Made by a program: the position numbers and the translations under genes | Shown: in pieces, positions 1 to 23,951 of the stretch | Layout of the letters: every line of letters begins with the position of its first letter | Position numbering within the stretch: position 1 is the first letter of the stretch | Origin: an uncultured Conexibacter sp. | GTDB taxonomy: Bacteria > Actinomycetota > Thermoleophilia > Solirubrobacterales > 70-9 | Direction: 5' to 3' | Length of the DNA stretch: 27,388 bases | Assembly (NCBI GenBank): GCA_964613275.1 | Contig: CAZTGN010000005.1 | Span: 1 to 27,388, forward strand | The notes under the pieces: model-generated | What the model saw: only the letters and a program-made list of their open reading frames with translations | Database searches by the model: none | What the model was told of the DNA's origin: nothing

Positions 1-1716
1 GCGGTCGGAGGTGTCGTAGTCGGTCGAGACGGTCTCCGGGTTGCAGTTGACCATCACCGCGTCGCGACCCGACTCACGGACGGTCATCGCCGCGTGGACG
101 CAGCAGTAGTCGAACTCGATCCCCTGCCCGATGCGGTTCGGCCCGGATCCGAGGATGACGACGCTCGGGCGGTCGCCGCGGCGGACCTCGCCGCCCGCGG
201 CCGGCCCCCGGACCGCCCGCTCGTGAGCCGAGTAGAAGTACGGGGTCTCGGCCTCGAACTCGGCGGCGCAGGTGTCGACCGACTTGTACGTGCGGTCGAG
301 CCCGGCGGTACCGTCGCCGTCGAGCGCGAGCGCTCGCAGCTCGCGCCGGTACCAGTGGTCGATCGCGGTTCGGGCGTGAATGCGCTCGAGGTCGATGCCG
401 CGGCGGAAGCCCTCGAGGATCAGGTCGAAGCGGTCCGAGGACGGCGTCTCGAGCCGGTCGAGGAGCTCGCCGTCGCCGTCCGGCGCCTCCGCCGGGGCGT
501 CGAGCTCGCGGGAGCGCATCGCCTTGGCGAACGACTCGCGGAACGTGCGGCCGATCGCCATCGCCTCACCGACGGACTTCATGTGGGTCGTCAGCCGGCC
601 CTCGCTGCCGGGGAACTTCTCGAACGCGAACCGCGGGACCTTCGTGACGACGTAGTCGATCGTCGGCTCGAACGCCGCCGGGGTCGCCCGGGTGATGTCG
701 TTGGGGATCTCGTCGAGCGCGTAGCCGACGGCGAGCCGGGCCGCGATCTTCGCGATCGGGAAGCCGGTCGCCTTCGAGGCCAGCGCCGAGGAGCGCGAGA
801 CCCGCGGGTTCATCTCGATCACGACGATCTCGCCGCTCCCGGGATCGACCCCGAACTGGACGTTCGAGCCGCCGGTCTCGACCCCGACCGCCCGGATCAC
901 CCTGATCGCCTGGTCGCGGAGCTCCTGGTAGAGGGCGTCGCTGAGGCTCTGCGCGGGCGCGACCGTCACCGAGTCCCCGGTGTGGACGCCCATCGGGTCG
1001 ATGTTCTCGATCGAGCAGACGACGATCACGTTGTCGTTCCGGTCACGCATCAGCTCGAGCTCGAACTCGCCCCAGCCGAGGACCGACTCCTCGACCAGGA
1101 CCTGGTTGATCGGGCTCGCCGCGAGCCCCTCGGAGATGATCTGCCTGAGCTCGGTCCCGGTCCGCGCCGCGCCGCCGCCCTGCCCGCCCATCGTGAAGGC
1201 GGGACGGATGATCGCCGGCAGGGTCAGCCTGCCGTCGGCCAGGGCCGCCTCGGCATCCGCCACCGATTCGGCGATCAGCGACCACGGGACCCGCAGCCCC
1301 GCCGCCTCCATCGTCTCCCGAAACGCCTCGCGGTCCTCGGCGCGGTGGATCGCGTCGTAGTCGGCTCCGATCAGCTCGACCCCGAACCGCTCCAGGGTGC
1401 CGTCGTCGTGCAGCGCCTTCGCCAGGTTCAGCGCCGTCTGCCCACCCAGCGTCGGCAGCAACGCGTCCGGCCGCTCGCGCTCGATGATCCGTGCCACGAC
1501 ATCGGGCACGAGCGGCTCGACGTAGGTGCGGTCGGCGAACTCCGGGTCGGTCATGATCGTCGCCGGGTTCGAGTTGACGAGGACGATCTCGTAGCCCTCC
1601 TCGCGCAGCACCTTGCACGCCTGCGTCCCCGAGTAGTCGAACTCGGCCGCCTGGCCGATCACGATCGGCCCGGAGCCGATCAACAGGATCTTCGCGATGT
1701 CGTCGCGGCGGGGCAT
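1..1716 (-). CDS. carB: Carbamoyl-phosphate synthase large subunit (5' part; runs off left edge)
   Basis: Translated by hand because it is absent from the ORF track (no stop in the window). ATG at 1716 gives [37 protein letters not shown]..., then [11 protein letters not shown] and [23 protein letters not shown]...[16 protein letters not shown] at the edge. The start overlaps the carA stop (TGATG). Confidence 0.98.
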
Positions 1717-2828
1717 CAGGCGGCGAGCTCCAGCGCCCGGTCGAACATGTACCGGGCGTCGTGCGGCCCGGGACCCGCCTCGGGGTGGTACTGGACGGTG
1801 CCGCCGGGGACGTCGAGGAGGCGAAGGCCCTCGACGGTGCGGTCGTAGAGGTTGAGGTGGGACAGCTCGGCGGCGCCGAAGTCCGTCTCCCAGCGGATCG
1901 GCTCGTCGGTCTCCATGCGCGTCTCCCCGTTCGGGCCGGCGACGGCGAAGCCGTGGTTCTGGGAGGTGATCTCGATCCGGCCGGTGGCGAGGTCCTTGAC
2001 CGGGTGGTTGGAGCCGCGGTGGCCGAACCGCAGCTTGAAGGTCTCGAGGCCGACGGCTCGGCAGAGGAGCTGGTGGCCGAGGCAGATCCCGAAGAGCGGG
2101 CGCCTGCCGACGAGTGCGCGGACGGTGGCGACGACCCGGTCGAGCGCGCCCGGATCACCGGGGCCGTTGGCGAGGAAGATCAGGTCGGGATCGTGCGCGA
2201 GCACCTCCTCGGCGCTCGTCGCGCAGGGAAGCAGCGTCACCCTGCAGCCGCGCTCGCGGAGCTCACGGACGATCGAGAGCTTGATGCCGGTGTCGAGGCC
2301 GACGACGTGGGGGCCGTCACCGTCGAGGACGATCGGCCCCGGCGGCGTCACGGTGCTCGCCAGATCGGCCCCCTCCATCGCCGGCTCCGCCCCGATCCGC
2401 TCGCGCGCCTCGGGCTCGGGCGTGGCGGCGGCGAAGATGCCGCCCCGCATGGCCCCGGCCTCGCGGATGTGGCGGACGAGCGCCCGCGTGTCGACCCCCG
2501 AGATGGCCGGCACCCCGCGGGCGTCGAGCCAGTCGAGCCAGCCGCTCTCGGCGGTGGCGAAGTCGTCCCCGTCCTTGGCCTCGCGCATGATCACCGCCCG
2601 GGCGTGGACCCGATCGGACTCCATCGCCGCGGCGCTGACGCCGTAGTTGCCGACGAGCGGATAGGTGAAGGTGATGATCTGCCCGGCGTAGCTGGGGTCG
2701 GTGACGGCCTCCTGATAGCCGGTCATCGCGGTGTTGAAGACGACCTCCCCGAGCGCCTCGGCGCCGGTTGCCCCGCAGAGCTCGCCGTCGAGCCGGGAGC
2801 CGTCCTCGAGCAGGACGTAGCCGCTCAC
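1716..2828 (-). CDS. carA: Carbamoyl-phosphate synthase small subunit (glutamine amidotransferase)
   Basis: [39 protein letters not shown], catalytic [30 protein letters not shown]. Confidence 0.98.
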
Positions 2829-3376
2829 GGCGCGTACTCCAGGACCAGCTTCTGGACCGCCTTGAAGCGCTCGTCTCCGGCGCCGCCGAGCAGCTCGAAC
2901 AGGGCCGTCTCGACGCTCGTCAGCCAGGCGCCGGCGCGCTCGGCCTTCGCCAGCCCGAGGTCGCGGTCGGCGTCGCTGCGGGAGCCCACCGCGTCGGCGA
3001 CGACGTGGACCTCGACGCCGCGGTCGAGCAGGTCGAGGACGGTCTGGTTGACGCAGACGTGCGCCTCGACCCCGCAGACGATCGCCTGCTCGCGGCCACC
3101 GAGGCCGAAGCCGTCGGCCGCTGCGGCCGAGAAGACGGTCTTGGCGATCGGCGCGACTCCCTCCGGCAGCGCGGTCGCAACCGCCGGGACGGTCGCCCCG
3201 AGACCCTGCGGGTACTGCTCGGTGACGACGATCGGCAGGGCCATCGCTTCCGCCCCGCGCGCCAGCGTCGCCGTCGCCGCCGCGATCCGCTCGAAGCCGG
3301 GGATCGCCTTGCGGAAGCCCTCCTGGACGTCGATGATGACGAGTGCGGCCCGCTCGGGATCGAGCTTGGCGCTCAC
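2825..3376 (-). CDS. Isochorismatase-family cysteine hydrolase (YcaC/ISOC-like)
   Basis: ALVIIDVQE (Asp), VVTEQYPQGLGATV, KTVFSA (Lys), CGVEAHVCVNQT (Cys), VADAVGSR. GTGA overlaps at both ends. Confidence 0.9.
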   Translation of the reverse strand: MSAKLDPERAALVIIDVQEGFRKAIPGFERIAAATATLARGAEAMALPIVVTEQYPQGLGATVPAVATALPEGVAPIAKTVFSAAAADGFGLGGREQAIVCGVEAHVCVNQTVLDLLDRGVEVHVVADAVGSRSDADRDLGLAKAERAGAWLTSVETALFELLGGAGDERFKAVQKLVLEYAP

Positions 3377-3465
3377 CGCAACGCTCCGGGGGCCCGGCGG
3401 GCGGCCCGCCCGCTGCGCTCGCCTGCAGCGAGCGGCTTCGTGTCGATGGCCGCGCTCTGCCTCAC
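3373..3465 (-). CDS. Putative 30-aa small ORF bridging pyrC and the isochorismatase gene
   Basis: The GTG at 3465 overlaps the pyrC TGA, and its TGA (3373-3375) overlaps the next GTG. AAGGTGG lies just upstream. It translates as MRQSAAIDTKPLAAGERSGRAARRAPGALR, with no recognisable motif. Confidence 0.35.
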   Translation of the reverse strand: MRQSAAIDTKPLAAGERSGRAARRAPGALR

Positions 3466-4832
3466 CCGGCCACCTTCATCGCGAACTCCCGGCGCCGGTA
3501 GGCGACCGCGCCGGCGATCACGGTGATCACCGGCCGCGAGCGCAGCGTCCGGCCCGCGAAGCAGGAGTTGGCCGAGCGGCTCTCCCAGCCGTCGGAGCCG
3601 GCGACCCACTCGGCGTCGAGATCGACGAGGGCGATGTCGGCCTCGGCGCCGACGGCGATCCTGGCGGGCTCGAGGTCGAAGAGGCTCGCCCCCGCGCCCA
3701 GCCGCTCGACCAGCAGGCCGAGGTCGATCGCGCCGGGGAGGACGAGCTCGGTGTAGAGCGCGGCGAACGCCGTCTCGAGCCCGGTGACCCCCATGTTGGC
3801 GGCCTCGAACGGCACCTCCTTCTCATGCGCCGCGTGCGGTGCATGGTCGGTGCCGATGCAGGCGGCGACGCCGCTTCGCAGGGCCTCGATCAGCGCTTGA
3901 CGATCGTCCTCGGTCCGCAGCGGCGGGTTCATCTTGAAGCGGGCGTCGAGGCTCCGCACCTCCTCGTCGGTCAGCGTCAGGTGATGGGGCGTGAGCTCGG
4001 CGGTGAGCCGCGCCCCCGCATCCTGCGCTGCCGCGACCGCCTCGACCGACGCCCGCGCCGAGAGGTGCTGGACGTGGGCGCGCCCGTCCTCGTAGCGGCA
4101 GAGGGCGCCGACGCGGGCGATCATCGTCGCCTCCGAGACGTCGGGGACCCCGGCGAGCCCGAGCGCGGCCGAGACCGCTCCCTCGGCCATCACCCCGTCG
4201 CCGCTCAGCGACGGGTCCTCCTCGTGCAGCAGGATCGTGCCGCCGGCGAGCCGTTGGTACTGGAGGGCGCGGCGCATCACCCCGGCGTCGGCGATCGGCA
4301 GCCCGTCGTCGGAGAAGCCGAGCGCCCCGACCCCGCGCAGGGCCGCCATCTCGGTCAGCTCGCGACCCGCCATTCCCCGCGTCACGGTTGCGACGAACCC
4401 GGTCGGTACCACGGCCTCGGCGGCGGCGCGCTCGCGCAGCGCCGTCACGATCGCCGGATCGTCGACGACCGGATCGGTGTTGGCCATCGCGACGATCCCG
4501 CAGTACCCGCCGGCGGCGGCGGCGCGCGTCCCGGTCTCGATGTCCTCCCGGTACTCCTGGCCGGGGGTGCGGAGGTGGACGTGAGGATCGAAGAACGCCG
4601 GGAACGCGTGGAGGCCGGCGGCATCGATCTCCTCGCCGCCGTCGCGGAGCTCGGCGGCGCCCGCACCGGCGATCTCGGCGATCCGTCCATCGCGGACGAG
4701 CAGGTCGCACTCGCGATCGACGCCGGCGCCGGGATCGAGCGCGTGCGCGCCGCGGATCAACAGGTCCCCGCCGCCCGCACCGCTCGCGCCGCGCCAGTCG
4801 AGGGACCCGATCTCACCGGCCTCGGCGCTCAA
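3462..4832 (-). CDS. pyrC: Dihydroorotase (class I)
   Basis: DPHVHLRTPG, VAMANT, FSDDG, HVQHLS, TPHHL, KMNPPLR, GTDHAPH. The start is placed at TTG 4832, overlapping the pyrB stop (TTGA); the track ORF extends spuriously to 5459. Confidence 0.96.
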   Translation of the reverse strand: MSAEAGEIGSLDWRGASGAGGGDLLIRGAHALDPGAGVDRECDLLVRDGRIAEIAGAGAAELRDGGEEIDAAGLHAFPAFFDPHVHLRTPGQEYREDIETGTRAAAAGGYCGIVAMANTDPVVDDPAIVTALRERAAAEAVVPTGFVATVTRGMAGRELTEMAALRGVGALGFSDDGLPIADAGVMRRALQYQRLAGGTILLHEEDPSLSGDGVMAEGAVSAALGLAGVPDVSEATMIARVGALCRYEDGRAHVQHLSARASVEAVAAAQDAGARLTAELTPHHLTLTDEEVRSLDARFKMNPPLRTEDDRQALIEALRSGVAACIGTDHAPHAAHEKEVPFEAANMGVTGLETAFAALYTELVLPGAIDLGLLVERLGAGASLFDLEPARIAVGAEADIALVDLDAEWVAGSDGWESRSANSCFAGRTLRSRPVITVIAGAVAYRRREFAMKVAG

Positions 4833-5806
4833 GCGGGCTCCCCGATCGGCGTCCCCTCGCCGGAGGTGATCGACGTCCCCGCGCCGACCGGGCTCAGGGG
4901 GCGGGGGCGCTCGCCGCCGGCGAGGATCTCGAAGAGGATCGCCATCCGCACCAGGAGGCCGCTTGCGACCTGGGCGGTGATCAGGGACGCCGGCCCGTCG
5001 ATCACGTCTGCCGCGAGCTCGACGCCGCGATTGACCGGCCCCGGGTGCATGACGAGCTGCCGCGGCCCGAGCCGCCGCGAGTCGATCTGGTAGTTGACCG
5101 CATACTCGCGCAGGGACGGCACGAAGGCCTGCCGCATCCGCTCCCGCTGCATCCGCAGCGCATAGACGACGTCGGCCTCGCCGAGGCCGTCGAGGTCGTA
5201 GGCCACCGCACAGCCGAGCGCCTCGATCCCGCGCGGGATCAGCGTCGGCGGCCCGACGACGGTCACCTCGGCGCCCATCGTCAGGAAGGCGCGGATGCAG
5301 GAGCGGGCAACGCGACTGTGGGCGAGATCGCCGACGATCCAGATCCGCTTGCCGTCGAGCGTGCCGACGTGGTCGAGCAGCGTGTAGACGTCGAGCAACG
5401 CCTGGCTGGGGTGCTCGTGCTTGCCGTCGCCGGCGTTGACGACGGCGGCCTCGGTCCAACCGGCGACCAGCGTCGCCGCACCCGCCTCGGGGGCGCGGAT
5501 GATGATCGCCTCGGGCTCGTAGGCCGACAGCGTCGCGATCGTATCCCGCAGCGACTCGCCCTTGTCGACCGAGGAGCCGGTCGACTTCACCGAGACGACG
5601 TCGGCGGAGAGCCGCTTCGCCGCCAGCTCGAACGAGGAGCTCGTCCGGGTGCTCGCCTCGTAGAAGAGGCTGACGACGGTTCGTCCGCGCAGCGTCGGGA
5701 CCTTCTTGATGTCGCGGCGGCCGACCTCGGCGAAGCTCCGGGCCCGCTCGCAGATCCGCTCGATGTCGTCGCGGTCGAGGTCGTCGATCGACAGCAGGTG
5801 CCTCAT
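4829..5806 (-). CDS. pyrB: Aspartate carbamoyltransferase catalytic subunit
   Basis: RHLLSI, FYEASTRT, SSFELAAKRLSAD, NAGDGKHEHPSQALLD, GDLAHSRVARS, RMQRER, MHPGPVNRG. Confidence 0.98.
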   Translation of the reverse strand: MRHLLSIDDLDRDDIERICERARSFAEVGRRDIKKVPTLRGRTVVSLFYEASTRTSSSFELAAKRLSADVVSVKSTGSSVDKGESLRDTIATLSAYEPEAIIIRAPEAGAATLVAGWTEAAVVNAGDGKHEHPSQALLDVYTLLDHVGTLDGKRIWIVGDLAHSRVARSCIRAFLTMGAEVTVVGPPTLIPRGIEALGCAVAYDLDGLGEADVVYALRMQRERMRQAFVPSLREYAVNYQIDSRRLGPRQLVMHPGPVNRGVELAADVIDGPASLITAQVASGLLVRMAILFEILAGGERPRPLSPVGAGTSITSGEGTPIGEPA

Positions 5807-6426
5807 CGCTCCCCCTCCCCGTCCGCCGACGCTGCCGGCGTCGGTGCCGGCGCCGGGCCGATCGCGACCTCGTCGACCCCGTCGGTCTCCTCGAGGCGGA
5901 CGTAGACGCGCTCCTCGCGGGCGGTCGGCAGGTTCTTGCCCGCGTAGTCGGGGCGGATCGGCAGCTCGCGGTGGCCGCGGTCGGCGAGGACGGCGAGCTG
6001 GATCCGCTGCGGCCGGCCGTAGTCGAAGAGCGCGTCGATCGCCGCCCTCACCGTGCGGCCGGTGAAGAGGACGTCGTCGACGAGGATGATCGTGCGGCCC
6101 GCCAGGTCGAAGTCGAGATGGGAGGAGTGGACGACCGGCATCCCGCCCGGCTCGCGATCGCCGAGATCGTCCCGGTAGAAGGAGATGTCGATGTCGCCGA
6201 GCGGGACCGGGGCACCGGTCAGCTCTTCGAGCAGCGCGTGGAGGCGCCGGCCGAGGATCGCCCCGCGCGTGTGGATGCCGACCAGCGCCACCCCGGGACC
6301 GGGCTCCCCTCCCGCACCCTCGTCGCGGGCGGGTCCGGCGTTCTTCTCGATGACCTCGTGCGCCATGCGCACCAGCGTCCGGCTCAGGTCGTCGCCGTCG
6401 AGGACGACCCTCTCGCTCGTTCCCAT
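5803..6426 (-). CDS. pyrR: Bifunctional pyrimidine regulator PyrR / uracil phosphoribosyltransferase
   Basis: RTLVRMAHEVIEKN, VGIHTRG, DISFYRDD, LVDDVLFTGRT, LADRGHRELPIRPDYAGKN. The start is ATG 6426, directly after the PyrR-binding element; the track start at 6675 runs through the promoter. Confidence 0.97.
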   Translation of the reverse strand: MGTSERVVLDGDDLSRTLVRMAHEVIEKNAGPARDEGAGGEPGPGVALVGIHTRGAILGRRLHALLEELTGAPVPLGDIDISFYRDDLGDREPGGMPVVHSSHLDFDLAGRTIILVDDVLFTGRTVRAAIDALFDYGRPQRIQLAVLADRGHRELPIRPDYAGKNLPTAREERVYVRLEETDGVDEVAIGPAPAPTPAASADGEGER

Positions 6427-6435
6427 TGTCGGGCG

Positions 6436-6468
6436 CCCCTTCCTGGCCTCACTGGACCTGGTTAAAGG
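6436..6468 (-). promoter_or_regulatory. PyrR-binding RNA element
   Basis: The minus strand reads CCTTTAACCAGGTCCAGTGAGGCCAGGAAGGGG. This matches the PyrR binding-loop pattern (CUUUAA...GUCCAGUGAGGC...AAGG) and ends about 10 nt before the pyrR ATG. Confidence 0.9.
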
Positions 6469-6482
6469 AAACGTCGCGGCGG

Positions 6483-6491
6483 AACTTAGCA
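6483..6491 (-). promoter_or_regulatory. Putative extended -10 promoter of the pyr operon
   Basis: TGCTAAGTT on the minus strand (TGn + TAnnnT), about 15 nt upstream of the PyrR element. Confidence 0.6.
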
Positions 6492-6631
6492 GGGCCGAGC
6501 GGCGGCTCGACGATGCCCACCCGCGGCGGTGGGATCGGTTCGCGGAATATGCGGCGTCTTTGCCATCACGGGTCGTGCGCTGGCGGCCGCGGTCGATCCC
6601 GATGCGGAGCCCGGCGAGACCGGGGCCTCGC

Positions 6632-7630
6632 TCACGTGGCGGTACGTGGCTCATGCCCCGCGCCGCCGCCGGCACCGTTCGGCGGCTCGGCGCGGGCGCC
6701 GTTGGCGATCAGCTCCGGCTTGCCGCGCTCGGGCAGCGGGATCGCGACCAGGTCGAAGTCGCGCGGTGCCACGGTCGCCGCGAAGGCGGAGCGGGCCTCG
6801 GCGAGGATGTCGGGCACGAAGTGGCGCGAGGAGATGTGGACGAGGGCGAGCATCGCGACGTCCGCCGCAGCCGCGAGCTCGGCCGCGCCGAGCGCGGTCG
6901 AGTGGCCGGTCTCGGTGGCGCGGTCGGCCTCGGCGGCGGCGAAGCTGCCGTCGTGGACGAGCAGCTCGGCGCCCTCGGCGGCGTGCTCGGTCTCCTCGCA
7001 GGGCTCGGTGTCGCCGGTGATCACGATCGTCCGCCCCGGCCGGTCCTCACCCATCACCTGCCCGGGCTCGACCGGCCCGTCGCGACCCGGCACCGAACGC
7101 CCCTGCTGCAGCTCCCCGAACGCCGGGCCCGACTCGACGCCGAGCGCCATCGCCGCCTCGGGATCGAAGCGGCCGGGACGATCGTCCTCCCGCAGCGCGT
7201 AACCGTTGGCGACGATCCGGTGTGAGACGTCGTACGGCTCGACCTCGAAGTCGCCGAAGTCGACCGACTCGCCGCGGTTGAGCTCGATCAGCTCCAGTCC
7301 GTAGCCGGGCTTGCCGACGATCCGCCCCAGCGACGCGAACAGCGTCCGCAGCCCCGGCGGCCCGTAGATCGCCAGCCGATCCTCGCGGTCCTGCATCTCG
7401 TAGCTCTTGATCAACCCCGGCAGGCCCAGGTAGTGGTCGGCGTGCAGGTGGGTGATGAAGATCGCGTCGAGGTTGATCAGCCCGATCGAGCGCTGCATCT
7501 GCCGCTGGGTCCCCTCGCCGCAGTCGAAGAGGATCCGGTGGCCGCCGCGGCGGACGAGCACGGCGGCGGTGTTGCGCCGGGCCGACGGCACCGAGCCGCC
7601 GGTGCCGAGGAAGATCACGTCGAGGTCCAT
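6632..7630 (-). CDS. rnz: Ribonuclease Z (tRNA 3' endonuclease, ElaC/Rnz)
   Basis: MDLDVIFLGTGGSVPSARRN, LFDCGEGTQRQ, THLHADH, exosite GVESGPAFGELQQG, TGDT, LLVHDGSF, LVHISSRH. ATG at 7630; the track ORF extends spuriously to 8407. Confidence 0.93.
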   Translation of the reverse strand: MDLDVIFLGTGGSVPSARRNTAAVLVRRGGHRILFDCGEGTQRQMQRSIGLINLDAIFITHLHADHYLGLPGLIKSYEMQDREDRLAIYGPPGLRTLFASLGRIVGKPGYGLELIELNRGESVDFGDFEVEPYDVSHRIVANGYALREDDRPGRFDPEAAMALGVESGPAFGELQQGRSVPGRDGPVEPGQVMGEDRPGRTIVITGDTEPCEETEHAAEGAELLVHDGSFAAAEADRATETGHSTALGAAELAAAADVAMLALVHISSRHFVPDILAEARSAFAATVAPRDFDLVAIPLPERGKPELIANGARAEPPNGAGGGAGHEPRTAT

Positions 7631-10472: not shown

Positions 10473-12176
10473 TCACCTCCGGATGGCTCGAGCCGGCTCG
10501 GTTCCGGCCTCATTCATCGCCTCGGCGAGCGCCTCGGCGAGCTCGTCACGGATCGCGGCGTCGGCGGGATCGATGACCGTCCCGCTCCGCACCCCGACCA
10601 GGTTGCGGACCTCGTCGGGATCGCGCTCGAGGTCGTACATCTCGTACTCGCTCGGACGCTCGCCGGCAGGGTCGAAGTAGAAGCCGTACTTGTGGCGCGG
10701 GGTGCGGACCGCCCGCAGGCGGCTCGGCTGCCCCGGGGCCTCGCGCTGGGCGGTCGCCGCCTGGTGGTCGTCGTAGGTGAAGTGGACGGACTCGCGAACG
10801 CCCTCCGTCGGCCGTCGATGCTCGAGCACCGGCCGCAGGTCGACGCCGGCACGGTCGACGGGCTCGCGCGCGGGCCCGGCGCGAGATGCCATCACCGGCA
10901 CGAGGCTGCGGCCCTTGAGGCCGAGCTCGACGCCGGCGGGGCGGCCGGAGAGCTCGAGCACGGTCGGCAGCACGTCGACGAGCGAGCCGAGCGCGTCGGT
11001 CTCGGCCGGCCGCGGGAACAGGACCGGGTTCGAGATCACGAGGGGGACGTTGATCGTCTCCTCGTAGGCGTTGAACGCCTTCTGCCGCAGGCCGCCGTGG
11101 GAGAGGCCCATCTCGCCGTGATCAGCGCAGCGGACGATCACGGTCCGCGAGCGGAGCGACGCCGGATCGTCGGCACCGCCGAGCGCGGCGAGGATGCGGC
11201 CGATCTTCGCGTCGACGAGCCGGTGCAGGTGGGCGTAGAAGTTGACGTAGTCGAGCCGGCGGCGGTGGCTGTCGAGCGGGCCCAGGTAGGCGGTCATGCC
11301 CATCCGCATCAGCGAGTGGACGGCCGGCTTGCCGGCCATGACCTCGTCGACGGTCGGCGGCAGCGGCACCCCGAGCTCGCGGAAGTCCCCGTCCGCGTAG
11401 CCCCCGGCAGCGTAGGAGGCGGGATAGCCGAGGACGTCGTGGGGGTTGACGAGGGAGGCGACCAGGCAGAACGGCTCCGGCAGGTCCTCGCGGCCGAGCC
11501 AGCGCTCGATCTGGGTCGTGTAGACCTCGTCCCACCCCTCCCCTTCCCCGGCGCTGCCGCCGCCGAAGTTCTCGGCCCGGGCGTTCTCGCCGGCGTCGGG
11601 CGCCTCCCAGTCGGCGAAGCCGTAGTCGCGCTCGATCCGGGCGGCGTCGCGCTCGCTCCAGCCGCCGAGCATCGATCCGGGCCCGCCGAGCGGATGGGTG
11701 AGGTGCCACTTGCCCTTGTAGGCGACCTCGTAGCCGCGCTCGCGCAGAAGTCGCGGCAGGCTCGGTATCGCGGCCGGCAGCTCGGTCTCGTGGCCGGTGC
11801 TCCGATCGAGCCCGGCCGCACCCTTGGCGAACTGGGTGAGGACCCGGCGCGGCGGCGCCTCGCGACGGCGCAGGATCTTCCCCATCTCCCTCATCACCGC
11901 CCGGGAGTTGGTCGGGTCGGGCCGCAGGTCGGCCGCGGTCAGCGTCAGCTCGACCCCGTGCTCGGCCGGGTAACGGCTCGTGAGCAGGCTGGCGCGACTC
12001 GGCGAGCACATCGACGAGCTGCAGAAGCCGCGCGTGAACGTGAGCCCGGTGCGCGCGAGCTCGGCGCAGCTCGGCATCAGCGCGTCGACCCAGCCCGGCT
12101 CGTCCGGCCAGTGGCGGACCTGCCGCTGCTGGTCGGTGATCAGCAGGAGCACGTTCGGAGGCTTCGACGCGGCTAT
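10473..12176 (-). CDS. Cys-type sulfatase, no signal peptide; start codon uncertain (ATA 12176 or GTG 12152)
   Basis: PNVLLLITDQQR, CSPSRASLLTSRYP, YKGKWHL, SLVNPHD, ADHGEMG, KAFNAYEETINVPL, YDLERDPDEVRN. This is the C-terminal part of track ORF 10473..14249. Confidence 0.88.
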   Translation of the reverse strand: MAASKPPNVLLLITDQQRQVRHWPDEPGWVDALMPSCAELARTGLTFTRGFCSSSMCSPSRASLLTSRYPAEHGVELTLTAADLRPDPTNSRAVMREMGKILRRREAPPRRVLTQFAKGAAGLDRSTGHETELPAAIPSLPRLLRERGYEVAYKGKWHLTHPLGGPGSMLGGWSERDAARIERDYGFADWEAPDAGENARAENFGGGSAGEGEGWDEVYTTQIERWLGREDLPEPFCLVASLVNPHDVLGYPASYAAGGYADGDFRELGVPLPPTVDEVMAGKPAVHSLMRMGMTAYLGPLDSHRRRLDYVNFYAHLHRLVDAKIGRILAALGGADDPASLRSRTVIVRCADHGEMGLSHGGLRQKAFNAYEETINVPLVISNPVLFPRPAETDALGSLVDVLPTVLELSGRPAGVELGLKGRSLVPVMASRAGPAREPVDRAGVDLRPVLEHRRPTEGVRESVHFTYDDHQAATAQREAPGQPSRLRAVRTPRHKYGFYFDPAGERPSEYEMYDLERDPDEVRNLVGVRSGTVIDPADAAIRDELAEALAEAMNEAGTEPARAIRR

Positions 12177-14779
12177 GGGAGCGTCCCGTCCCAGTTCGCC
12201 TCGTAGCAGGGGCTCGCGCCGCAGGGATCGGTGATCCTGCCGCCCGTGTCGAGGAACTCGGCGATCTGCCGGCGGATCGCCGGCGTGTTGCGGATCACGC
12301 GGTCGTGCGGGTCGAGCCCGAAGCTGTCGTCGGGGGAGGTGTTGGTCAGCGGCGGCGGGTCGGTGCCGAGGATGTCGTCGGGATCGGGCGTGGTCGGGTC
12401 GGGCCGCTTCGGCCCGACGTCCCAGATGAAGAAGCCGCTCCCCTCGGCCGCCGGGCCGGAGAGGTCGCCGAGCGTCTCGAGGCCGGCGAACGGGTTCGCG
12501 TACTCCGGCTGGAGGCGGTCGGCGTCGACCGCCGGCATCCGCAGCGGCGCCCCGATCGTCCGCGCCTCGACCTCGGTCTGGACGTTGGCCACCTGGTGGT
12601 CGCCGTAGGCCATCTCGATCAGCACCTCGTGCGGCGGCGTGCCCGGCAGCGGGTCGTCGGTCATGTGGTTGGCGTACCCGTTCGGCTCGCCACGGTCCCA
12701 CATCGACTGGATCAGGGTCAGAAGCAGCGGCCGCTCCGCCTCGACCGGGTAGCTCGGGTAGAGGACCAGCGCGTAGTCCTCGAAGTCGATGCTGCGCGTC
12801 AGCATCACCGAGTAGTTCATCGCGGGCACGTAGAGGACCGAGCGGGTGAAGTCGGTGGCGACCGCGGTCAGCGCGCCGCCGGCGATCCCGCCCTGGCTGT
12901 TGCCGTAGTAGAACAGCGGCTTCGTCGTGTCGATGACGCTCGCACCGTTGAACCGGAAGGCGGGATCGGCGGCGAACCCGTCCGGGTGGATCATCGCCCG
13001 CCCGAGATAGAGGAAGTCGAGGAAGCCCTGCTGGAGGCGGTCCGGAAGCGGCTTGAAGTCCGACAGGTCGAGCAGCGCCGGAACCGCGACCGGTCCGACG
13101 TCGTCCTCCGACATCCCGATCCAGTCGGTGGCGCAGGTCATCACCCCGTGGTCGGTGCCGAGCGTCCGGACGTCGCGGGTGTGGACCTCGCTGTAGTCGC
13201 CGAAGAGCCCGTGCCCGTACATCGAGGTGCGCACGGGCGCGATCACGTCGCCGCTCCCGTCGACGGCCGAGCGCGGGATGTTGCAGGTGAAGCGGGCGTC
13301 GTAGAAGCCGTTCTGCCGCGGGATCCCGTCTCCGTCGAGGTTGAGGACGGCGCCCGGGTCGCACGGCTTCGCCGGCCCGCCGCCGTCGGGGTCGGTCATG
13401 TAGCAAGGCACGCTCACCGTGCCGGTGACCTCGCGGATGTTCTCGGCCCCTCGTTCGTTCGGCGTCGCCGCGTCGGGGAAGTCGACGACGCCGTCGGGGC
13501 CGTTGCCCGGGTCGCCGTCGTTCGGGTTGATCGTGAACCCGGGCGAGGTACCGTCGACGCCGCCGTCGGTCAGGTCGGCGTCCCCGAGGTCGGCGAACGC
13601 CTGGTCGCGCATCGAGAGCATCCGGCCGGTCATGTTGGCGGTGCTGGCGACGGTGAAGTCCCAGGCGAGGTAGAGGCCGTGACGCCTGATGCCGGCGTCG
13701 CCGAGCGTGTCGAAGATCGATTCGAAGTGGTCCCGGCGCCGCTCGATCGCGCCGATCCCGGTCGGGATCCGGTCGCGGTAGAGCTGAAAGCCGGCCGGCG
13801 CATCGATCGGAGCGCCGGCTGCGTCCTCGATCCCCCGCAGGGCGACGACGTAGCGGTGGCCGTCCTCGAGGTTCTTGCCGAAGTGGACCAGCAGGTCGGT
13901 CTGATCGGGGCTCGAGGCGTTCGAGTCGAGCTCGGCCCAGATCAGCTGCCGCTCGCCGGAGTCGGCATCGATCACGACGATCGGCTGCTGCGGGTCGAAC
14001 GACTCGTCCATGTCGGTGATCGCGACCGGATCGGTCGCGGCGAACGCCGCCGGCGTGTCCATCCCGGGCACCCGGAGGACGATCGGGGCGCCGGGGCTGA
14101 AGCCGTCGCTGGTGTTGAGCTCGCCCGGGTCGACCGGGACGCCGCTGGCGTTCGTCGGCATCGACGCCGTCTTCAGGTCGAGGCGGAGCCCCGTCGGCGT
14201 CGAGTCGTCGGGGCGGGTGTAGAAGTCGTTGGGGTAGGGGAACAGGCACTGCTCGCCCGGCGCGGCGATCGGATCGCAGCGGTCGGCGGCGGCGACCTCC
14301 ACCCCGACCGGGTCGGCCCCGTCGCAGCGGGCCGGATCGCGCTTCATCTTCGCCGTCGCGACGACCTTGCGGGTCTCGCCCTTCGCGCTGTAGCGGCCGG
14401 TCAGCCGCAGCCTGGTCGCCATGCAGCTACGGACGAGGGGCTCGCCGGCGCGGTTGATCGTGAACGTCACGCGGCTCCTGCGGCCCCGGCGGACGCGAGC
14501 CTTCCGATTGGCGGCGATGTTCGTCCTCTCGCCGCCCTGGAGGACCGCCAGAGACAGCGTCATCCGCTTCGCCTTGCGGCCGCGGTGGGTAGCGGTGGCG
14601 AAGGCCTCGCCGCTGCTCACGAGCGCCGCCTGGGCGGACTTCTTCAGCTCCAGCTGCGGCTGCGGCGACTTCGCCGCGTCGGCGGCGGCGATCGGCCCGG
14701 CGATCGTGACGACGATCGCGACGGCGGCGATGACGACGGCTGCGATGTCGATCCGGCCGGTCCCGGCGGCTTTGGACAA
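12173..14779 (-). CDS. Large secreted protein with C-terminal alpha/beta-hydrolase (lipase/esterase-like) domain
   Basis: TTG start with GGAGAG RBS, long signal peptide ending AAADA, CLFPYPNDFY, DGFSPGAP, oxyanion-like YGHGLFG, nucleophile elbow YGNSQGG (12890-12904), GDHQV and a C-terminal DPH. Confidence 0.8.
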   Translation of the reverse strand: MSKAAGTGRIDIAAVVIAAVAIVVTIAGPIAAADAAKSPQPQLELKKSAQAALVSSGEAFATATHRGRKAKRMTLSLAVLQGGERTNIAANRKARVRRGRRSRVTFTINRAGEPLVRSCMATRLRLTGRYSAKGETRKVVATAKMKRDPARCDGADPVGVEVAAADRCDPIAAPGEQCLFPYPNDFYTRPDDSTPTGLRLDLKTASMPTNASGVPVDPGELNTSDGFSPGAPIVLRVPGMDTPAAFAATDPVAITDMDESFDPQQPIVVIDADSGERQLIWAELDSNASSPDQTDLLVHFGKNLEDGHRYVVALRGIEDAAGAPIDAPAGFQLYRDRIPTGIGAIERRRDHFESIFDTLGDAGIRRHGLYLAWDFTVASTANMTGRMLSMRDQAFADLGDADLTDGGVDGTSPGFTINPNDGDPGNGPDGVVDFPDAATPNERGAENIREVTGTVSVPCYMTDPDGGGPAKPCDPGAVLNLDGDGIPRQNGFYDARFTCNIPRSAVDGSGDVIAPVRTSMYGHGLFGDYSEVHTRDVRTLGTDHGVMTCATDWIGMSEDDVGPVAVPALLDLSDFKPLPDRLQQGFLDFLYLGRAMIHPDGFAADPAFRFNGASVIDTTKPLFYYGNSQGGIAGGALTAVATDFTRSVLYVPAMNYSVMLTRSIDFEDYALVLYPSYPVEAERPLLLTLIQSMWDRGEPNGYANHMTDDPLPGTPPHEVLIEMAYGDHQVANVQTEVEARTIGAPLRMPAVDADRLQPEYANPFAGLETLGDLSGPAAEGSGFFIWDVGPKRPDPTTPDPDDILGTDPPPLTNTSPDDSFGLDPHDRVIRNTPAIRRQIAEFLDTGGRITDPCGASPCYEANWDGTLP

Positions 14780-14942: not shown

Positions 14943-15593
14943 CTAGGCCGCAACATCCCGATCGGCGGCGATGCGGACCCGGCGGCCGACCCAGGGCAGC
15001 GAGAGGAGCGCCAGCCAGCTGAGCTGCGCCACGATCGGCGAGAGCAGCGCGATCGGTATCGAAGCGAGGAAGATCAGCGACCGGAGCCGGCCGGTGACGA
15101 GCTGCTCGCGTCGCTGACCGGGGCTGACCGGCACCGTCAGCCCGGCCCCGAAGGCGATCTTGTCGAGGCGTGAGTCGGCGAGCGCCGCCAGCCCGACGTT
15201 GGCGGCGTACACGACGACCGAGATCGACTGGTCGCCGTAGGTCCCCATCAGGTCCGTCGTGAACGGCATCAGCGCGATCAGCGAGAGCAGCAGCAGGTTC
15301 GCCCAGACGAGTTGCGGCGACGTCGCCCGCAGGCTCGACCACATCTTGTGGTGGCCGTACCAGAAGAGCCCGATCACCGCGAAGGCGATGAAGTACGCCC
15401 ACACGTCCGGGACGAGGTCGTCGAGGGCCGTGGCGAGTCGCTCGTCGCCGGCGAGCTCGGGGACCTCGATGTTGAGGACCAGCAGGGTGATCGCGACCGC
15501 GAAGACCCCGTCGCTGAAACCGCTGACGCGGTCGAGCTCGCGCTGCGTGGAGTCGGCCTCCTCCCGGCTGTCGGTGGCGGCGTCCATCGACAC
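14943..15593 (-). CDS. TMEM175-family potassium channel (DUF1211)
   Basis: RVSGFSDGVFAVAITLLVL signature, FWYGHH, LIALMPF, about six hydrophobic segments. Confidence 0.92.
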   Translation of the reverse strand: MSMDAATDSREEADSTQRELDRVSGFSDGVFAVAITLLVLNIEVPELAGDERLATALDDLVPDVWAYFIAFAVIGLFWYGHHKMWSSLRATSPQLVWANLLLLSLIALMPFTTDLMGTYGDQSISVVVYAANVGLAALADSRLDKIAFGAGLTVPVSPGQRREQLVTGRLRSLIFLASIPIALLSPIVAQLSWLALLSLPWVGRRVRIAADRDVAA

Positions 15594-16214: not shown

Positions 16215-18906
<2,692 letters not shown>

Positions 18907-18945: not shown

Positions 18946-19029
18946 CGCCTCCCGGAACCGAGCGGGCGAGGCCTCGGAGGGAAGTCGTGCCGTCGCGGGT
19001 CCTGCTTCGGGCGCTCTAACCTCCTCCCC

Positions 19030-19419
19030 ATGCGCAACCTGCGGCCACTGTTCGACCAGGTCGTGATCAAGGAGCTCGAGCCCGATCGCGTCCGGCAATC
19101 GGGGCTGGTCGTGCCGCCGGGCTCACGGGAGCCGCCGCCCCAGCACGGGATCGTGATCGCGGTCGGGCCCGGGCTCGATTGGTGGGCGCAGGCCGGGGTG
19201 AAGATGCCCGTCGCGCCCGGGGACCACGTCGTCTTTCCCGCCAGCGCCGGCGTCTGGGTCGAGATCGAGGAGGAGCGACTGCTCGTCTGCACGGTCAACG
19301 AGATCCTCGGCGTGCTCGAGGAGATCGGCGTCTGCCCCTTCTGCGAGGGCAAGGGCGTCCCCGGCGGTGACTCATGTCCCGTCTGTGGTCGCGCGGCCGA
19401 GCCGACCGGCCCGGAATGA
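19030..19419 (+). CDS. GroES/Cpn10-like protein with C-terminal CxxC zinc-knuckle extension
   Basis: LRPLFDQVVIK, SGLVVP, GIVIAVGPG, PVAPGDHVVF and EILGVL match the Cpn10 pattern. The tail reads CPFCEGKGVPGGDSCPVCG. TAACCT lies 7 nt upstream of the ATG. Confidence 0.85.
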   Translation: MRNLRPLFDQVVIKELEPDRVRQSGLVVPPGSREPPPQHGIVIAVGPGLDWWAQAGVKMPVAPGDHVVFPASAGVWVEIEEERLLVCTVNEILGVLEEIGVCPFCEGKGVPGGDSCPVCGRAAEPTGPE

Positions 19420-20618
19420 GCCGCATCAGGCTGCCGCCGCCTCCGGCGGCATTGAGGTCCAGGCTGCTCACGGTCGGCCCGGTCCCGCCGGAATGGGGCG
19501 GCAAGCTCCGCGGCGGCGTCACCCGCTTCAACGTCACCCTCCTCGACGAGCTGCGGACCCGTCCCTGGCGGCACCGGATCGAGCCGATCGGCGTCCTGAT
19601 CCCGCCGCCGCAGCGGATCCACCGCCGGATCGCCGAGCGTCTCGCTCCGCTGCCGATCTTCATGCAGCCCAGGGGCGGACGGCCGCGGCGGTTCACGCGG
19701 ATGCTGCTCGACGAGCAGCGCCCGGACGTCGTCCTCGTCAACAACATCGCCGCCTTCAACGGCGCCCGCTACGTCCGCGTCCAGGCGGCGGTGGCGCCGG
19801 AGCTGCCGACGATCGCGATCGTCCACGAGTGGCGGGCGATCAGGGCCAAGGCGGGCGATCAGGAGCGCTCCCGCCGCTACCACGAGGCGGCGCAGGCGGC
19901 GCTCGACAGCATCGACGCGGTCGTCTTCCCCTCCCGTCACACCCGCGGGGTCGGCAGTGAGCAGCTCGGGTTGAGCTACCCCGAGCGCGCCGTCGTCATC
20001 CACAACCCGATCCAGCCCGCCTTCGTCGAGCCCGGCCTCGATGTTGTCGGCCCACGGGCCGGGGTCGCCTTCGTCGGCTCCTACAACGACCGCAAGAACC
20101 CGCAGTCGCTGCTGCGTGCGCTCCGCGCGATGCCCGGCCTCGAGCTGACGCTGCAGGGGCGCGGCCCGATCGAGGACGACCTGCGGGCGCTCGCCGCCGA
20201 GCTCGGAATCACCGACCGCGTCCGGTTCGCCCCGTTCCTCGGCCACCGCAAGCACGTCGATGCCGTGATCGACGTGATGCGATCGGCGGAGCTCCTCTGC
20301 CTACCCTCCCGCAGCGAGGCGTTCGCGCTCGTGATGGTCGAGGCGCTCGCCGCCGGCACGCCGGTCGCCGGCTACGGGCCGACCCTGGTCGAGATCCGCG
20401 ACCGGCTCGGGATCGATGTCGGCGAGCCGATCTTCGATCCCACCCCCGACAACGTCGCGGCGGCGATCGAGTCGGTCCGCTCGCGCGGCTGGGATCGGGG
20501 GGCGCTCCGCCGTGGGGCGCTTGCCAGCTTCGCGCCGCCGGTGATCGCGAGCGAGTACGCCCGCCTGATCCGCGCGGTCGCCCGACCGCGCCGGAGCGGG
20601 GACACGGCACGCGGTTGA
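19416..20618 (+). CDS. GT4-family (GT-B) glycosyltransferase
   Basis: VVFPSRHT, VIHNPI, FVGSYNDRKNP, QGRGP, PSRSEAFALVMVEALAAGTPV (EX7E). ATG 19416 overlaps the upstream TGA (ATGA). Confidence 0.9.
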   Translation: MSRIRLPPPPAALRSRLLTVGPVPPEWGGKLRGGVTRFNVTLLDELRTRPWRHRIEPIGVLIPPPQRIHRRIAERLAPLPIFMQPRGGRPRRFTRMLLDEQRPDVVLVNNIAAFNGARYVRVQAAVAPELPTIAIVHEWRAIRAKAGDQERSRRYHEAAQAALDSIDAVVFPSRHTRGVGSEQLGLSYPERAVVIHNPIQPAFVEPGLDVVGPRAGVAFVGSYNDRKNPQSLLRALRAMPGLELTLQGRGPIEDDLRALAAELGITDRVRFAPFLGHRKHVDAVIDVMRSAELLCLPSRSEAFALVMVEALAAGTPVAGYGPTLVEIRDRLGIDVGEPIFDPTPDNVAAAIESVRSRGWDRGALRRGALASFAPPVIASEYARLIRAVARPRRSGDTARG

Positions 20619-22397: not shown

Positions 22398-22670
22398 TCA
22401 GCCGCCGGCCACCGCGGGCAGGATCGTCACCTCGGCGCCGTCGTCGACGGCGGTCTCGAGGCCGTCCTGGAAGCGAATGTCCTCGCCGGAGACGTAGACG
22501 TTGACGAAGCGGCGCAGGTCGCCGCCCTCGGTGATCCGCTCGCGCAGCCCGTCGTGCTTGGCGAAGACCGCGTCGAGCGCGTCGCCCACCGTCCCCGCCT
22601 CGACCTCGATCTCGGCCGCGCCGCCGGTGGCGGGCCGTAGCTGGGCCGGGATCTTGACCTTGACTGCCAT
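22398..22670 (-). CDS. Ubiquitin-like sulfur carrier protein (MoaD/ThiS/CysO family)
   Basis: VKIPAQLR, RRFVNVYVSGEDIRF, C-terminal ILPAVAGG. Confidence 0.95.
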   Translation of the reverse strand: MAVKVKIPAQLRPATGGAAEIEVEAGTVGDALDAVFAKHDGLRERITEGGDLRRFVNVYVSGEDIRFQDGLETAVDDGAEVTILPAVAGG

Positions 22671-22694
22671 CCTGCGCTCGCTCCGGGCGGAAAC

Positions 22695-23951
22695 CTAGAT
22701 CATCTGGCTGAGCGCCGGAGCGGCCACGGCGCCGCGCTCGGGCACGTGCGCCGCAAACGACTCGAGCGTCGGCTCGATCTCGTGCATCGCGAACCCCTCG
22801 CGGACGGCGTCGAGCGTCTTCAGCCCCTCGCCGGTGATGTAGACGACGACGCGATCGCCCGTGCCGATCTCGCCGCGGTCGGCGAGCTTGGCGAGCGTCG
22901 CCGTCGTGACGCCGCCGGCGGTCTCGGTGAAGATCCCGGTCGTCTCCGCGAGCAACCGGATCCCGGCCCTGATCTCGTCATCGCTGACGGCGTCGATCGA
23001 GCCGCCGCTCGAGCGGGCGAGATCGAGCGCGTAGGGCCCGTCGGCGGGATCGCCGATCGCGAGGCTCTTGGCGATCGTGTCGGGGCGGACCGGACGGCAG
23101 ACGTCGTCGCCGTCCGCGAATGCGGCCGCGACCGGGCCGCACCCGGCCGCCTGGGCGCCGTGGAAGGTGGGCAGCTCGCCGGCGACGAGTCCGAGCGCGC
23201 GCCACTCCTCGAACCCGCGACCGATCTTCGTGAACAGCGAGCCGGAGGCGATCGGGCAGACGACCCGGTCGGGCAGCCTCCAGCCGAGCTGCTCGACGGT
23301 CTCGTAGGCGAGCGTCTTCGACCCCTCGGCGTAGTAGGGGCGCACGTTGACGTTGACGAAGGCCCAACCCCGCTCCGCGGCGAGCTCGGTGCAGAGGCGG
23401 TTGACGTCGTCGTAGTTGCCCTCGACGCCGACCAGGGTCGTCCCGTAGACGCCGGTGGCGAGCAGCTTCTGCTCCTCGAGGTCGGCCGGCACGAAGACGT
23501 AGGAGTCGACGCCGGCGGCGGCCGCGTGGGCGGCGACCGCGTTGGCGAGGTTGCCGGTCGAGGCGCAGGCGACCGTGTCGAAGCCGAGCTCGAGCGCCTT
23601 CGCGAGGGCGACGGCGACGACCCGGTCCTTGAAGCTGTGGGTCGGGTTGGCGGCGTCGTTCTTGATCCAGACCTCGCCGATGCCGAGCTGCTCGGCGAGC
23701 CGGTCGGCCCGCACGAGCGGGGTCAGGCCGGGCTCGATCGCGCTGGCGGGCGGCGATGCGAACGGCAGGAAGTCGGCGTAGCGCCAGATGCCGCTGCTGC
23801 CGGCCTGGATCCGGCGCCGGGCCGAATCGGCGTCGATCCCGGCGTAGTCGTAGCCCACCTCGAGCGGGCCGAAGCACTGCTCGCACACGTAGAGGGCCTC
23901 GAGCGGGTACTCGGTCCCGCACTCCTTGCACCTGAGGCTCGTCACTGTCAC
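22695..23951 (-). CDS. Threonine-synthase-like PLP enzyme with N-terminal zinc ribbon (candidate sulfur-carrier-dependent homocysteine synthase)
   Basis: CKEC...CEQC ribbon, GLTPL, NPTHSFKDR (PLP Lys), ASTGNLANAVAA, NVNVRPYYAEGSKT, PIASGSL, ETAGG, TGEGLK. Confidence 0.9.
   Translation of the reverse strand: MTVTSLRCKECGTEYPLEALYVCEQCFGPLEVGYDYAGIDADSARRRIQAGSSGIWRYADFLPFASPPASAIEPGLTPLVRADRLAEQLGIGEVWIKNDAANPTHSFKDRVVAVALAKALELGFDTVACASTGNLANAVAAHAAAAGVDSYVFVPADLEEQKLLATGVYGTTLVGVEGNYDDVNRLCTELAAERGWAFVNVNVRPYYAEGSKTLAYETVEQLGWRLPDRVVCPIASGSLFTKIGRGFEEWRALGLVAGELPTFHGAQAAGCGPVAAAFADGDDVCRPVRPDTIAKSLAIGDPADGPYALDLARSSGGSIDAVSDDEIRAGIRLLAETTGIFTETAGGVTTATLAKLADRGEIGTGDRVVVYITGEGLKTLDAVREGFAMHEIEPTLESFAAHVPERGAVAAPALSQMI

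Follow-up and report, generated by a model that had tools for sequence, protein, structure and literature searches.

To our knowledge, functional tails on co-chaperonins are so far known only from HspA of Helicobacter pylori, where the metal is nickel. HspA is a GroES with a C-terminal metal-binding domain B of about 27–30 residues, four of which are Cys (PMC5116745). Domain B is rich in His (8 His), binds 2 Ni per chain and contains two vicinal disulfides (CC...CC), and in small-angle X-ray scattering HspA is a heptamer with seven tails that project radially (PMC5116745). Here we describe a gene for a GroES-like (Cpn10) protein with a different C-terminal tail, a predicted Cys4 zinc knuckle. 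The gene lies in a stretch of 27,388 nucleotides from an uncultured Conexibacter sp. of the class Thermoleophilia (assembly GCA_964613275.1, contig CAZTGN010000005.1, positions 1 to 27,388 of the forward strand), which we call the window; it is chromosomal DNA with 72% G+C. With a probability of roughly 0.55, the gene encodes a divergent GroES paralogue specific to Thermoleophilia that has gained the zinc knuckle and would act as an alternative lid of GroEL.

HspA is, by analogy, the closest precedent, and it shows that a GroES ring can carry tails of this kind and expose them. The tails themselves are not homologous. That of the window protein lacks His and has the arrangement CxxC...CxxC with a fixed spacer of 10 residues, which is typical of one tetrahedral zinc site. 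HspA is also an essential housekeeping GroES encoded beside groEL, whereas the window protein is very likely a paralogue. Canonical GroES (Mycobacterium tuberculosis 1p3h, Thermus thermophilus 1wnr, Escherichia coli 1aon) shares with the window protein the fold, the domain length, the terminal strands, the (K/R)-P-L-x-D signature of the N-terminal strand and, in the mobile loop, S/G-G followed by a hydrophobic tripeptide. In contrast to canonical GroES, the window protein has a Trp-Trp roof and 30 extra residues as a tail, and its gene has neither the groES-groEL operon nor the controlling inverted repeat of chaperone expression (CIRCE). Phage co-chaperonins (T4 Gp31, phrog_3188) are, like our gene, stand-alone Cpn10-fold genes unlinked to groEL. 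Unlike them, the window gene is chromosomal, sits among pyrimidine, katG and sugar-nucleotide genes with no phage genes around it, and is conserved throughout the class.

The fold, extra chaperonin genes, one metal-binding GroES tail and database entries under a generic GroES name are already known. The initial annotation, made from the letters of the window, regarded the architecture as undescribed. In the literature we came across no paper that describes this Thermoleophilia paralogue or any Cpn10 bearing a Cys4 zinc knuckle, nor one that relevantly links Cpn10 or GroES to a zinc ribbon or finger or to Thermoleophilia. The statement has to be qualified for the databases, where more than 1,600 sequences are already named "co-chaperone GroES (family protein)", and HspA is a precedent. 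The gene and its parts are as follows.

19030..19419, plus strand: gene for the Cpn10 plus Cys4-knuckle protein, ATG to TGA, 129 amino acids (aa); complete open reading frame (ORF) with a coding-frame signature
19036..19314, plus strand: Cpn10 (GroES-fold) domain, residues 3–95, Pfam PF00166
19078..19140, plus strand: mobile-loop equivalent EPDRVRQSGLVVPPGSREPPP, from the alignment with Thermoleophilaceae, M. tuberculosis and E. coli GroES
19165..19203, plus strand: roof region GPGLDWWAQAGVK, one residue shorter than the canonical one, from the alignment
19333..19392, plus strand: predicted Cys4 zinc knuckle, C102-P-F-C105-x10-C116-P-V-C119-G-R
19017..19022, plus strand: TAACCT, a −10-like hexamer (TANNNT) that ends 7 nucleotides (nt) before the ATG

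The codon pattern of the 129-aa ORF (GC3 > GC1 > GC2, the G+C contents of the three codon positions) is that of a genuine plus-strand gene, with a GC3 of 0.83 that lies below the GC3 of its neighbours. PF00166 matches residues 3–95 of the window protein with an E-value of 1.2e-18 (67.4 bits against a cut-off of 21.1) and also matches all 92 aligned family members. After the last Cpn10 strand, ILGVLEE, follows the tail, IGV-C102-P-F-C105-EGKGVPGGDS-C116-P-V-C119-GR. ORF, Cys positions and Pfam match all agree with the proposal that a complete Cpn10-like domain is followed by C102, C105, C116 and C119 (19333–19386).

We built a single-chain AlphaFold2 model from the 92-sequence alignment; its predicted local distance difference test (pLDDT) is 74 overall and about 70–75 across the knuckle. 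With this model, the top 35 Foldseek matches are all Cpn10, GroES or Gp31 at a probability of 1.00, the best being 1p3h and 1wnr. The identity of the window protein to solved GroES structures is 30–43%. When the family profile is compared with the Protein Data Bank (PDB), the 18 sequences found are all chains of Cpn10/GroES-family co-chaperonins (GroES chains E 2.4e-18, residues 5–98). Matches in this comparison are confined to residues 2–98, and no solved structure covers the tail.

Could the tail be a chance read-through of the stop codon or an annotation artefact without function? The initial annotation took homologues without the Cys tail as a sign of exactly this, and such homologues do exist. 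Yet C-x2-C, a spacer and a second C-x2-C are present in 195 of 197 unique family sequences, and the remaining two are tail-less tandem Cpn10 fusions. The spacer is exactly 10 residues long in 190 of the 195 tailed sequences. The second knuckle reads CPVC in 189 of them and the first has the form CP-x-C. In the 92-sequence alignment C102, C105, C116, P117, C119 and G120 are invariant, and a codon-by-codon alignment of 79 species loci shows G-R after CPVC in every one. Under these kept residues the codons change synonymously among the 79 species (TGC/TGT, CCC/CCG, GTC/GTG, GGG/GGC, CGC/CGG/AGG). Because the residues are kept while their codons vary, we have direct evidence that purifying selection acts on the tail. 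With its four Cys invariant, its spacer fixed and the variation of the key codons purely synonymous, the read-through explanation is refuted and has next to no probability, even though tail-less homologues are real.

A second question is whether the protein is simply the organism's own GroES with a lineage-specific decoration. The sources do name it "co-chaperone GroES", and it is widespread and strongly conserved in the class. However, the window protein stays below all 15 NCBIfam GroES models (PRK00364 equivalogs, cut-offs 96–215), reaching at best 61.2 bits where 120 are needed. The class also has a canonical groES-groEL operon preceded by CIRCE. We traced the housekeeping gene from a Thermoleophilum album GroEL segment (supplement of PMC6544083), by way of a match to a GroEL fragment, to a Thermoleophilaceae-like contig (L084) that carries a 96-aa Cpn10 gene (3339–3629) directly upstream of groEL. 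The groEL gene is split by a frameshift on this long-read contig. Two tandem CIRCE elements at 3253–3307, TTGGCACTC-N9-GAGTGCCAA and CTGGCACTC-N9-GAGTGCCAA, lie 30–85 nt upstream of groES with 2 and 3 mismatches, where none is expected by chance.

A search with the GroES of this contig returns proteins of 96–97 aa with 91–98% identity, all named "Thermoleophilaceae bacterium" or "Actinomycetota bacterium". One canonical GroES (P0338) is encoded 15 nt upstream of a 543-aa Cpn60 gene in ten further contigs, and across Thermoleophilaceae contigs the canonical groES lies 15–30 nt upstream of groEL. P0338 is 64% identical to M. tuberculosis GroES and only 31% identical to the window protein. In a neighbour-joining tree the whole family stands apart from all canonical GroES, as a clade on a long branch. 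Tailed members are also named from metagenome-assembled genomes (MAGs) of Thermoleophilaceae (P0059, P0115, L040, L046, L051, L052). Hence, both gene types occur in Thermoleophilaceae, which makes paralogy within one genome very likely. The window gene is very likely a paralogue and not the housekeeping GroES, as the initial annotation expected when it spoke of a specialised Cpn10: the low identity, the missed NCBIfam cut-offs and the separate clade in the phylogeny all bear this out. That the tailed protein is the housekeeping GroES seems highly improbable to us.

The surroundings of the gene point the same way. We compared neighbourhoods in 81 loci (10 kb to either side), and upstream operators in 79 loci. 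Neither a second Cpn10 nor a Cpn60/groEL gene lies within 10 kb in any of the 81 loci, so the observation that no groEL is adjacent extends from the window to the family. No CIRCE was found within 250 nt upstream in the 79 loci, allowing up to 5 mismatches, or anywhere in the window with up to 4, as had been claimed for the region upstream of the gene. The HspR operator (HspR-associated inverted repeat, HAIR) is equally absent from the 250 nt upstream in the 79 loci at up to 3 mismatches. This lack of linkage to groEL and CIRCE speaks further against a housekeeping role.

What takes the place of heat-shock control is probably a promoter of the gene's own. In 70 of the 81 loci a TANNNT hexamer ends 6–18 nt ahead of the start codon, compared to 0.9% at random positions, and a Shine–Dalgarno-like core is present in only 9 of the 81. 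TANNNT is the actinobacterial −10 consensus. Because it stands right before the start codon, an own promoter and a leaderless or near-leaderless mRNA are most likely. A scan around the gene for strict E. coli sigma-70 promoters and for terminators found none; we base the promoter on the position of TANNNT across species. The lid would then be expressed constitutively and not under heat-shock (HrcA/CIRCE) control.

The argument for a lid of GroEL comes from the mobile loop. Residues S24-G25-L-V-V-P29 align with ASG-LVI-P of M. tuberculosis and AGG-IVL of E. coli, and in canonical GroES the aligned tripeptide inserts into GroEL. In the 92-sequence alignment S24, G25 and P29 are invariant, and L26 and V28 nearly so. 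Residues 19–23 are disordered in the model (pLDDT < 50), as expected of a flexible loop. Also retained from canonical GroES are, in the alignment, the N-terminal strand with its P-L-x-D signature (LRPLFDQVVIK) and the C-terminal strand. Because the two strands and the signature are kept, the protein should assemble into a GroES-like ring, and because S-G-L-V-V-P is invariant this ring should dock on GroEL and may serve as an alternative lid.

Other parts have changed. The flanks of the loop differ from canonical GroES and are rich in proline. In the roof, the acidic tip of canonical GroES is replaced by L-D-W-W, in which W51 and W52 are invariant across the 92 sequences, and residues 49–54 of the model are predicted as a short helix in place of the hairpin tip. 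The claim that loop and roof diverge from housekeeping GroES is therefore right for the loop flanks and the Trp-Trp roof; the centre of the loop, SGLVVP, is however kept. The Trp-Trp roof would change the dome. Three further residues, H39 (PPQHG; 19144–19146), H66 (GDHVVFP; 19225–19227) and C87 (LLVC; 19288–19290), are invariant or nearly so in the family, and canonical GroES carries other residues at these positions.

What kind of zinc site is the knuckle? Two CPxC-type knuckles that are conserved across homologues mark a generic Cys4 zinc ribbon or knuckle, and this is what the family has. Knuckles of the form CPxC...CPxCG with such spacing are structural zinc sites in anti-TRAP, DnaJ and methionyl-tRNA synthetase (MetRS). 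By its sequence, C-x2-C-x10-C-x2-C, the tail has the geometry of single Cys4 zinc sites of the type found in DnaJ/anti-TRAP and MetRS, and the spacing is identical to that of anti-TRAP and of DnaJ motifs 3–4. DnaJ has four CxxCxGxG motifs that form two zinc centres, and its adjacent motifs 3 and 4 share no zinc. Compared to the cysteine-rich domain of DnaJ, the window tail has one pair of CxxC only, with CPVCGR as its second knuckle. The MetRS knuckle is an insertion inside the catalytic domain; ours is a C-terminal appendage.

The initial annotation called the tail a DnaJ-type knuckle and its first motif an exact CxxCxGxG repeat. The latter is true of the first knuckle of the window protein, but among the 195 tailed members the full motif occurs in only 63 (32%) and CxxCxG in 128. 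The DnaJ label is fair as far as geometry goes. In a search of the PDB with the tail alone, DnaJ motifs 3–4 (1exk) align weakly and without gaps, CPHCQGRGTLIKDPCNKCH, at E 0.24. Positions 12–30 of the NCBIfam anti-TRAP (RtpA) profile likewise align ungapped to residues 102–120, a weak match (E 0.033, 14 bits against a cut-off of 65), and anti-TRAP itself (2bx9) is reached at E 2. Among the best 150 cluster representatives the only non-Cpn10 protein (P0245) matches the tail with DnaJ-type repeats. The label fails insofar as GxG is not conserved, and no more than 4 of 92 members match Pfam DnaJ_CXXCXGXG (PF00684), none of them passing its cut-off (best E 0.01).

MetRS and rubredoxin score equally well. 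The best PDB match of the tail alone is the zinc knuckle of Pyrococcus MetRS, residues 140–165, at E 0.2; matches to the MetRS knuckle (1rqg, 1mea) have E 0.2–0.5 and are insignificant. The pattern I-G-x-C-P-Y-C-x8-10-G-D-x-C-x-V-C-G-R is nearly superimposable on the Pyrococcus residues, and an NCBIfam MetRS model weakly matches residues 100–126 of the window protein. Rubredoxins follow at E 0.3–1.4, aligned chiefly through the second CPxCG knuckle. Across the 92 members the weak zinc-ribbon matches include DUF7575 in 81 (best E 0.0014), TackOD1, the Rad50 hook, DZR and rubredoxin-like families. On sequence grounds, homology cannot be established for one unit of 20 residues. Each knuckle would bind one structural zinc, as in anti-TRAP, the cysteine-rich domain of DnaJ or the MetRS knuckle. 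The seven knuckles of a ring might then project from its outer rim and bind other proteins, be it a GroEL paralogue, a substrate or a partner. P0245 is a curious protein in its own right: it is metagenomic, 496 aa long, and has an HNH nuclease domain followed by six CPLCxGRGSYEGDDCPECG repeats, which Pfam recognises as DnaJ_CXXCXGXG (E 2e-24) and as Anti-TRAP (E 3.5e-13).

The family is confined to one class wherever we could assign it. A sequence search among 5.8 billion proteins gave 1,678 matches. The best 120 of these have 70–91% identity and are mostly 126–139 aa long, and the organism names on them are all from Thermoleophilia: Solirubrobacterales, Thermoleophilaceae and Thermoleophilum album. 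In a scan of one genome per GTDB species, relatives were found in at least 505 species, all labelled Thermoleophilia. The 80 species loci that we retained are all from Thermoleophilia MAGs and all have the tail; these homologues are 127–134 aa long with 70–94% identity. A match on an Indioceanicola megaplasmid that apparently spanned the tail was rejected. It is an ordinary 104-aa groES followed by groEL, and tblastn had read through in frame.

The genes next to the window gene might suggest other functions. They are:

16215–18446, minus strand: divergent katG, Pfam PF00141 (peroxidase, E 3.8e-73)
18439 to about 18906, minus strand: divergent gene for a fur-family regulator, Pfam PF01475 (FUR, E 1.5e-18)
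19416..20618, plus strand: gene for a family-4 glycosyltransferase (GT4), Pfam Glycos_transf_1 and Glyco_transf_4

The fur and katG genes are placed as the initial annotation had them, divergent from our gene, and in the window they share an intergenic region of 123 nt with it. One could therefore argue for a redox-switch co-chaperonin: peroxide or hypochlorite would oxidise the zinc thiolate, zinc would be released and lid activity would change, as part of an oxidative-stress response with furA-katG. Cys4 zinc centres do act as redox switches in Hsp33 and RsrA. In another clade, 15 loci also have an OsmC/Ohr-like gene some 3.6 kb downstream. Yet the furA-katG link is local to one clade, with katG adjacent in only 5 of the 81 loci and fur, by tblastn, in 2, which leaves little support for the redox sensing that was proposed from it. 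Several sublineages have lost the tail, knuckles of this form and spacing are structural in anti-TRAP, DnaJ and MetRS, and no regulatory element was identified. We consider a redox switch doubtful.

Downstream, the ATG of the GT4 gene overlaps the stop codon of cpn10 (ATGA at 19416–19419). This overlap suggests translational coupling, and in the clade of the window the GT4 gene is probably co-transcribed with cpn10. In 21 of the 81 loci GT4 is the next gene downstream, in the same orientation as cpn10, and likewise in L095. The largest clade has other neighbours. There nucS, which encodes an endonuclease, lies divergently upstream in 34–41 of the 81 loci, and a gene for a 421-aa J-like protein with tetratricopeptide repeats (TPR) lies convergently downstream in 35–43 (e.g., L074:12533–13795, minus strand). 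The 421-aa protein has a J-like N-terminus that contains HPD (Pfam DnaJ E 1.4e-4, below the cut-off) and C-terminal TPR repeats, but no zinc finger.

These neighbours lead to a possible, though clearly minor, alternative: the Cpn10 ring, or a form that is not a ring, has been repurposed as a scaffold or adaptor that works independently of GroEL. The knuckles and the Trp-rich roof would bind, for example, the J-like/TPR protein, DnaK or an envelope enzyme such as GT4. It would fit that groEL is never linked, that the roof is strongly divergent, that the J-like/TPR and GT4 genes recur next to cpn10 (the latter with the ATGA overlap in the window), and that basal relatives occur on a putative phage contig. 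However, the S-G-L-V-V-P of the mobile loop is invariant. We know of no role for a loop stretch of this type other than binding to GroEL. The neighbours are also confined to clades and NucS is as conserved as the others, which indicates inherited synteny rather than functional coupling. The J-like/TPR gene is convergent and hence not co-transcribed.

The phage-like contig is from IMG/VR (L081; UViG_3300044692_000034, 141 kb), where it is classed as viral. At 4992–5342 it encodes a tail-less relative with 56% identity, the WW roof and GDHVVFP, which is basal in the tree and matches phrog_3188. The neighbouring ORFs give a few weak PHROG matches, including endonuclease VII. This relative could be a phage-borne co-chaperonin that is related or ancestral to the chromosomal family.

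An alternative lid of GroEL with a zinc knuckle on every subunit remains the reading we prefer, and several observations weigh against it. The first is the existence of full-length relatives without the tail, which an exhaustive search of representatives turned up and which are interspersed in the tree. A 117-aa form, [quoted passage not shown], stands for a 90% cluster of 55 members, and a form of 118–126 aa has 101 members. A more distant tail-less group also lacks the WW roof. In our rough tree some tail-less forms fall among the tailed ones and others are basal, which suggests one gain of the tail followed by several losses. Because close relatives lack it, the knuckle appears to be an accessory module that is dispensable for the role of the core. 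Second, the tail of the window protein has no significant Pfam match: all matches to a single-unit knuckle are insignificant (E 0.03–2). Third, the altered roof with its predicted helix, or the proline-rich loop flanks, could abolish normal lid function. Fourth, tailed and canonical genes were found together on no contig and in no assembly, so they co-occur at the level of the family-level taxon. Fifth, clades other than those described above have different neighbours again. Since none is conserved across the family, the context gives no reliable, consistent hint of function, and functions read from the neighbours were rejected because each neighbourhood is specific to its clade. Last, we infer ring formation, GroEL binding and zinc binding alike from sequence.

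The two tandem fusions mentioned above (P0001, 199 aa; P0011, 209 aa) join two Cpn10 copies head to tail and lack the Cys tail. Either these are true tandem duplications that are read as a single gene, or they are artefacts of assembly or frameshift on short contigs. By comparison with them, some of the tail-less forms may be second copies.

The rest of the window looks like ordinary chromosome, because it includes a pyrimidine cluster and a homologue of TMEM175. The pyrimidine cluster (1–6675, minus strand) comprises carA, an amidohydrolase gene (pyrC-like), pyrB and a phosphoribosyltransferase gene (pyrR-like). The TMEM175-type potassium channel homologue (14943–15593, minus strand) lies beside the katG region. 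An ORF of 868 aa at 12173–14779 (minus strand) has a very strong coding signature (GC3 0.96) and no Pfam match; its homologues lie near tailed cpn10 genes in 13 loci of the same clade. At 22398–23951 (minus strand) a ThiS/MoaD-like sulfur-carrier gene (98 aa) directly follows a gene for a pyridoxal phosphate-dependent enzyme (PALP). The arrangement resembles thiocarboxylate-dependent biosynthesis of the CysO-CysM type. Residues 7–31 at the N-terminus of the PALP protein match the short NinF family of Pfam.

There is also a bolder version of these ideas, which we regard as a long shot. The lid itself could be a chaperone that binds clients or partners: the knuckles on the rim would capture unfolded proteins or recruit Hsp70, or the ring would work without GroEL altogether. 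Recruitment of Hsp70 could run through the J-like/TPR protein, which lacks a zinc finger and is encoded beside cpn10 in about half of the genomes. If this were true, the hand-over from Hsp70 would be physically coupled to encapsulation by GroEL.

Thermoleophilia are among the most abundant actinobacteria in soil and have hardly been studied. The tailed family is easily testable: the protein is small and soluble, and there are cultured hosts (Conexibacter woesei, Thermoleophilum album). With a second GroES that is conserved throughout the class, the chaperonin system would have diversified along a new route, distinguished by expression outside heat-shock control, an aromatic roof and zinc knuckles on all subunits. 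Should these knuckles bind substrates or partners, then the lid, usually regarded as a passive cap, would gain a recognition function.

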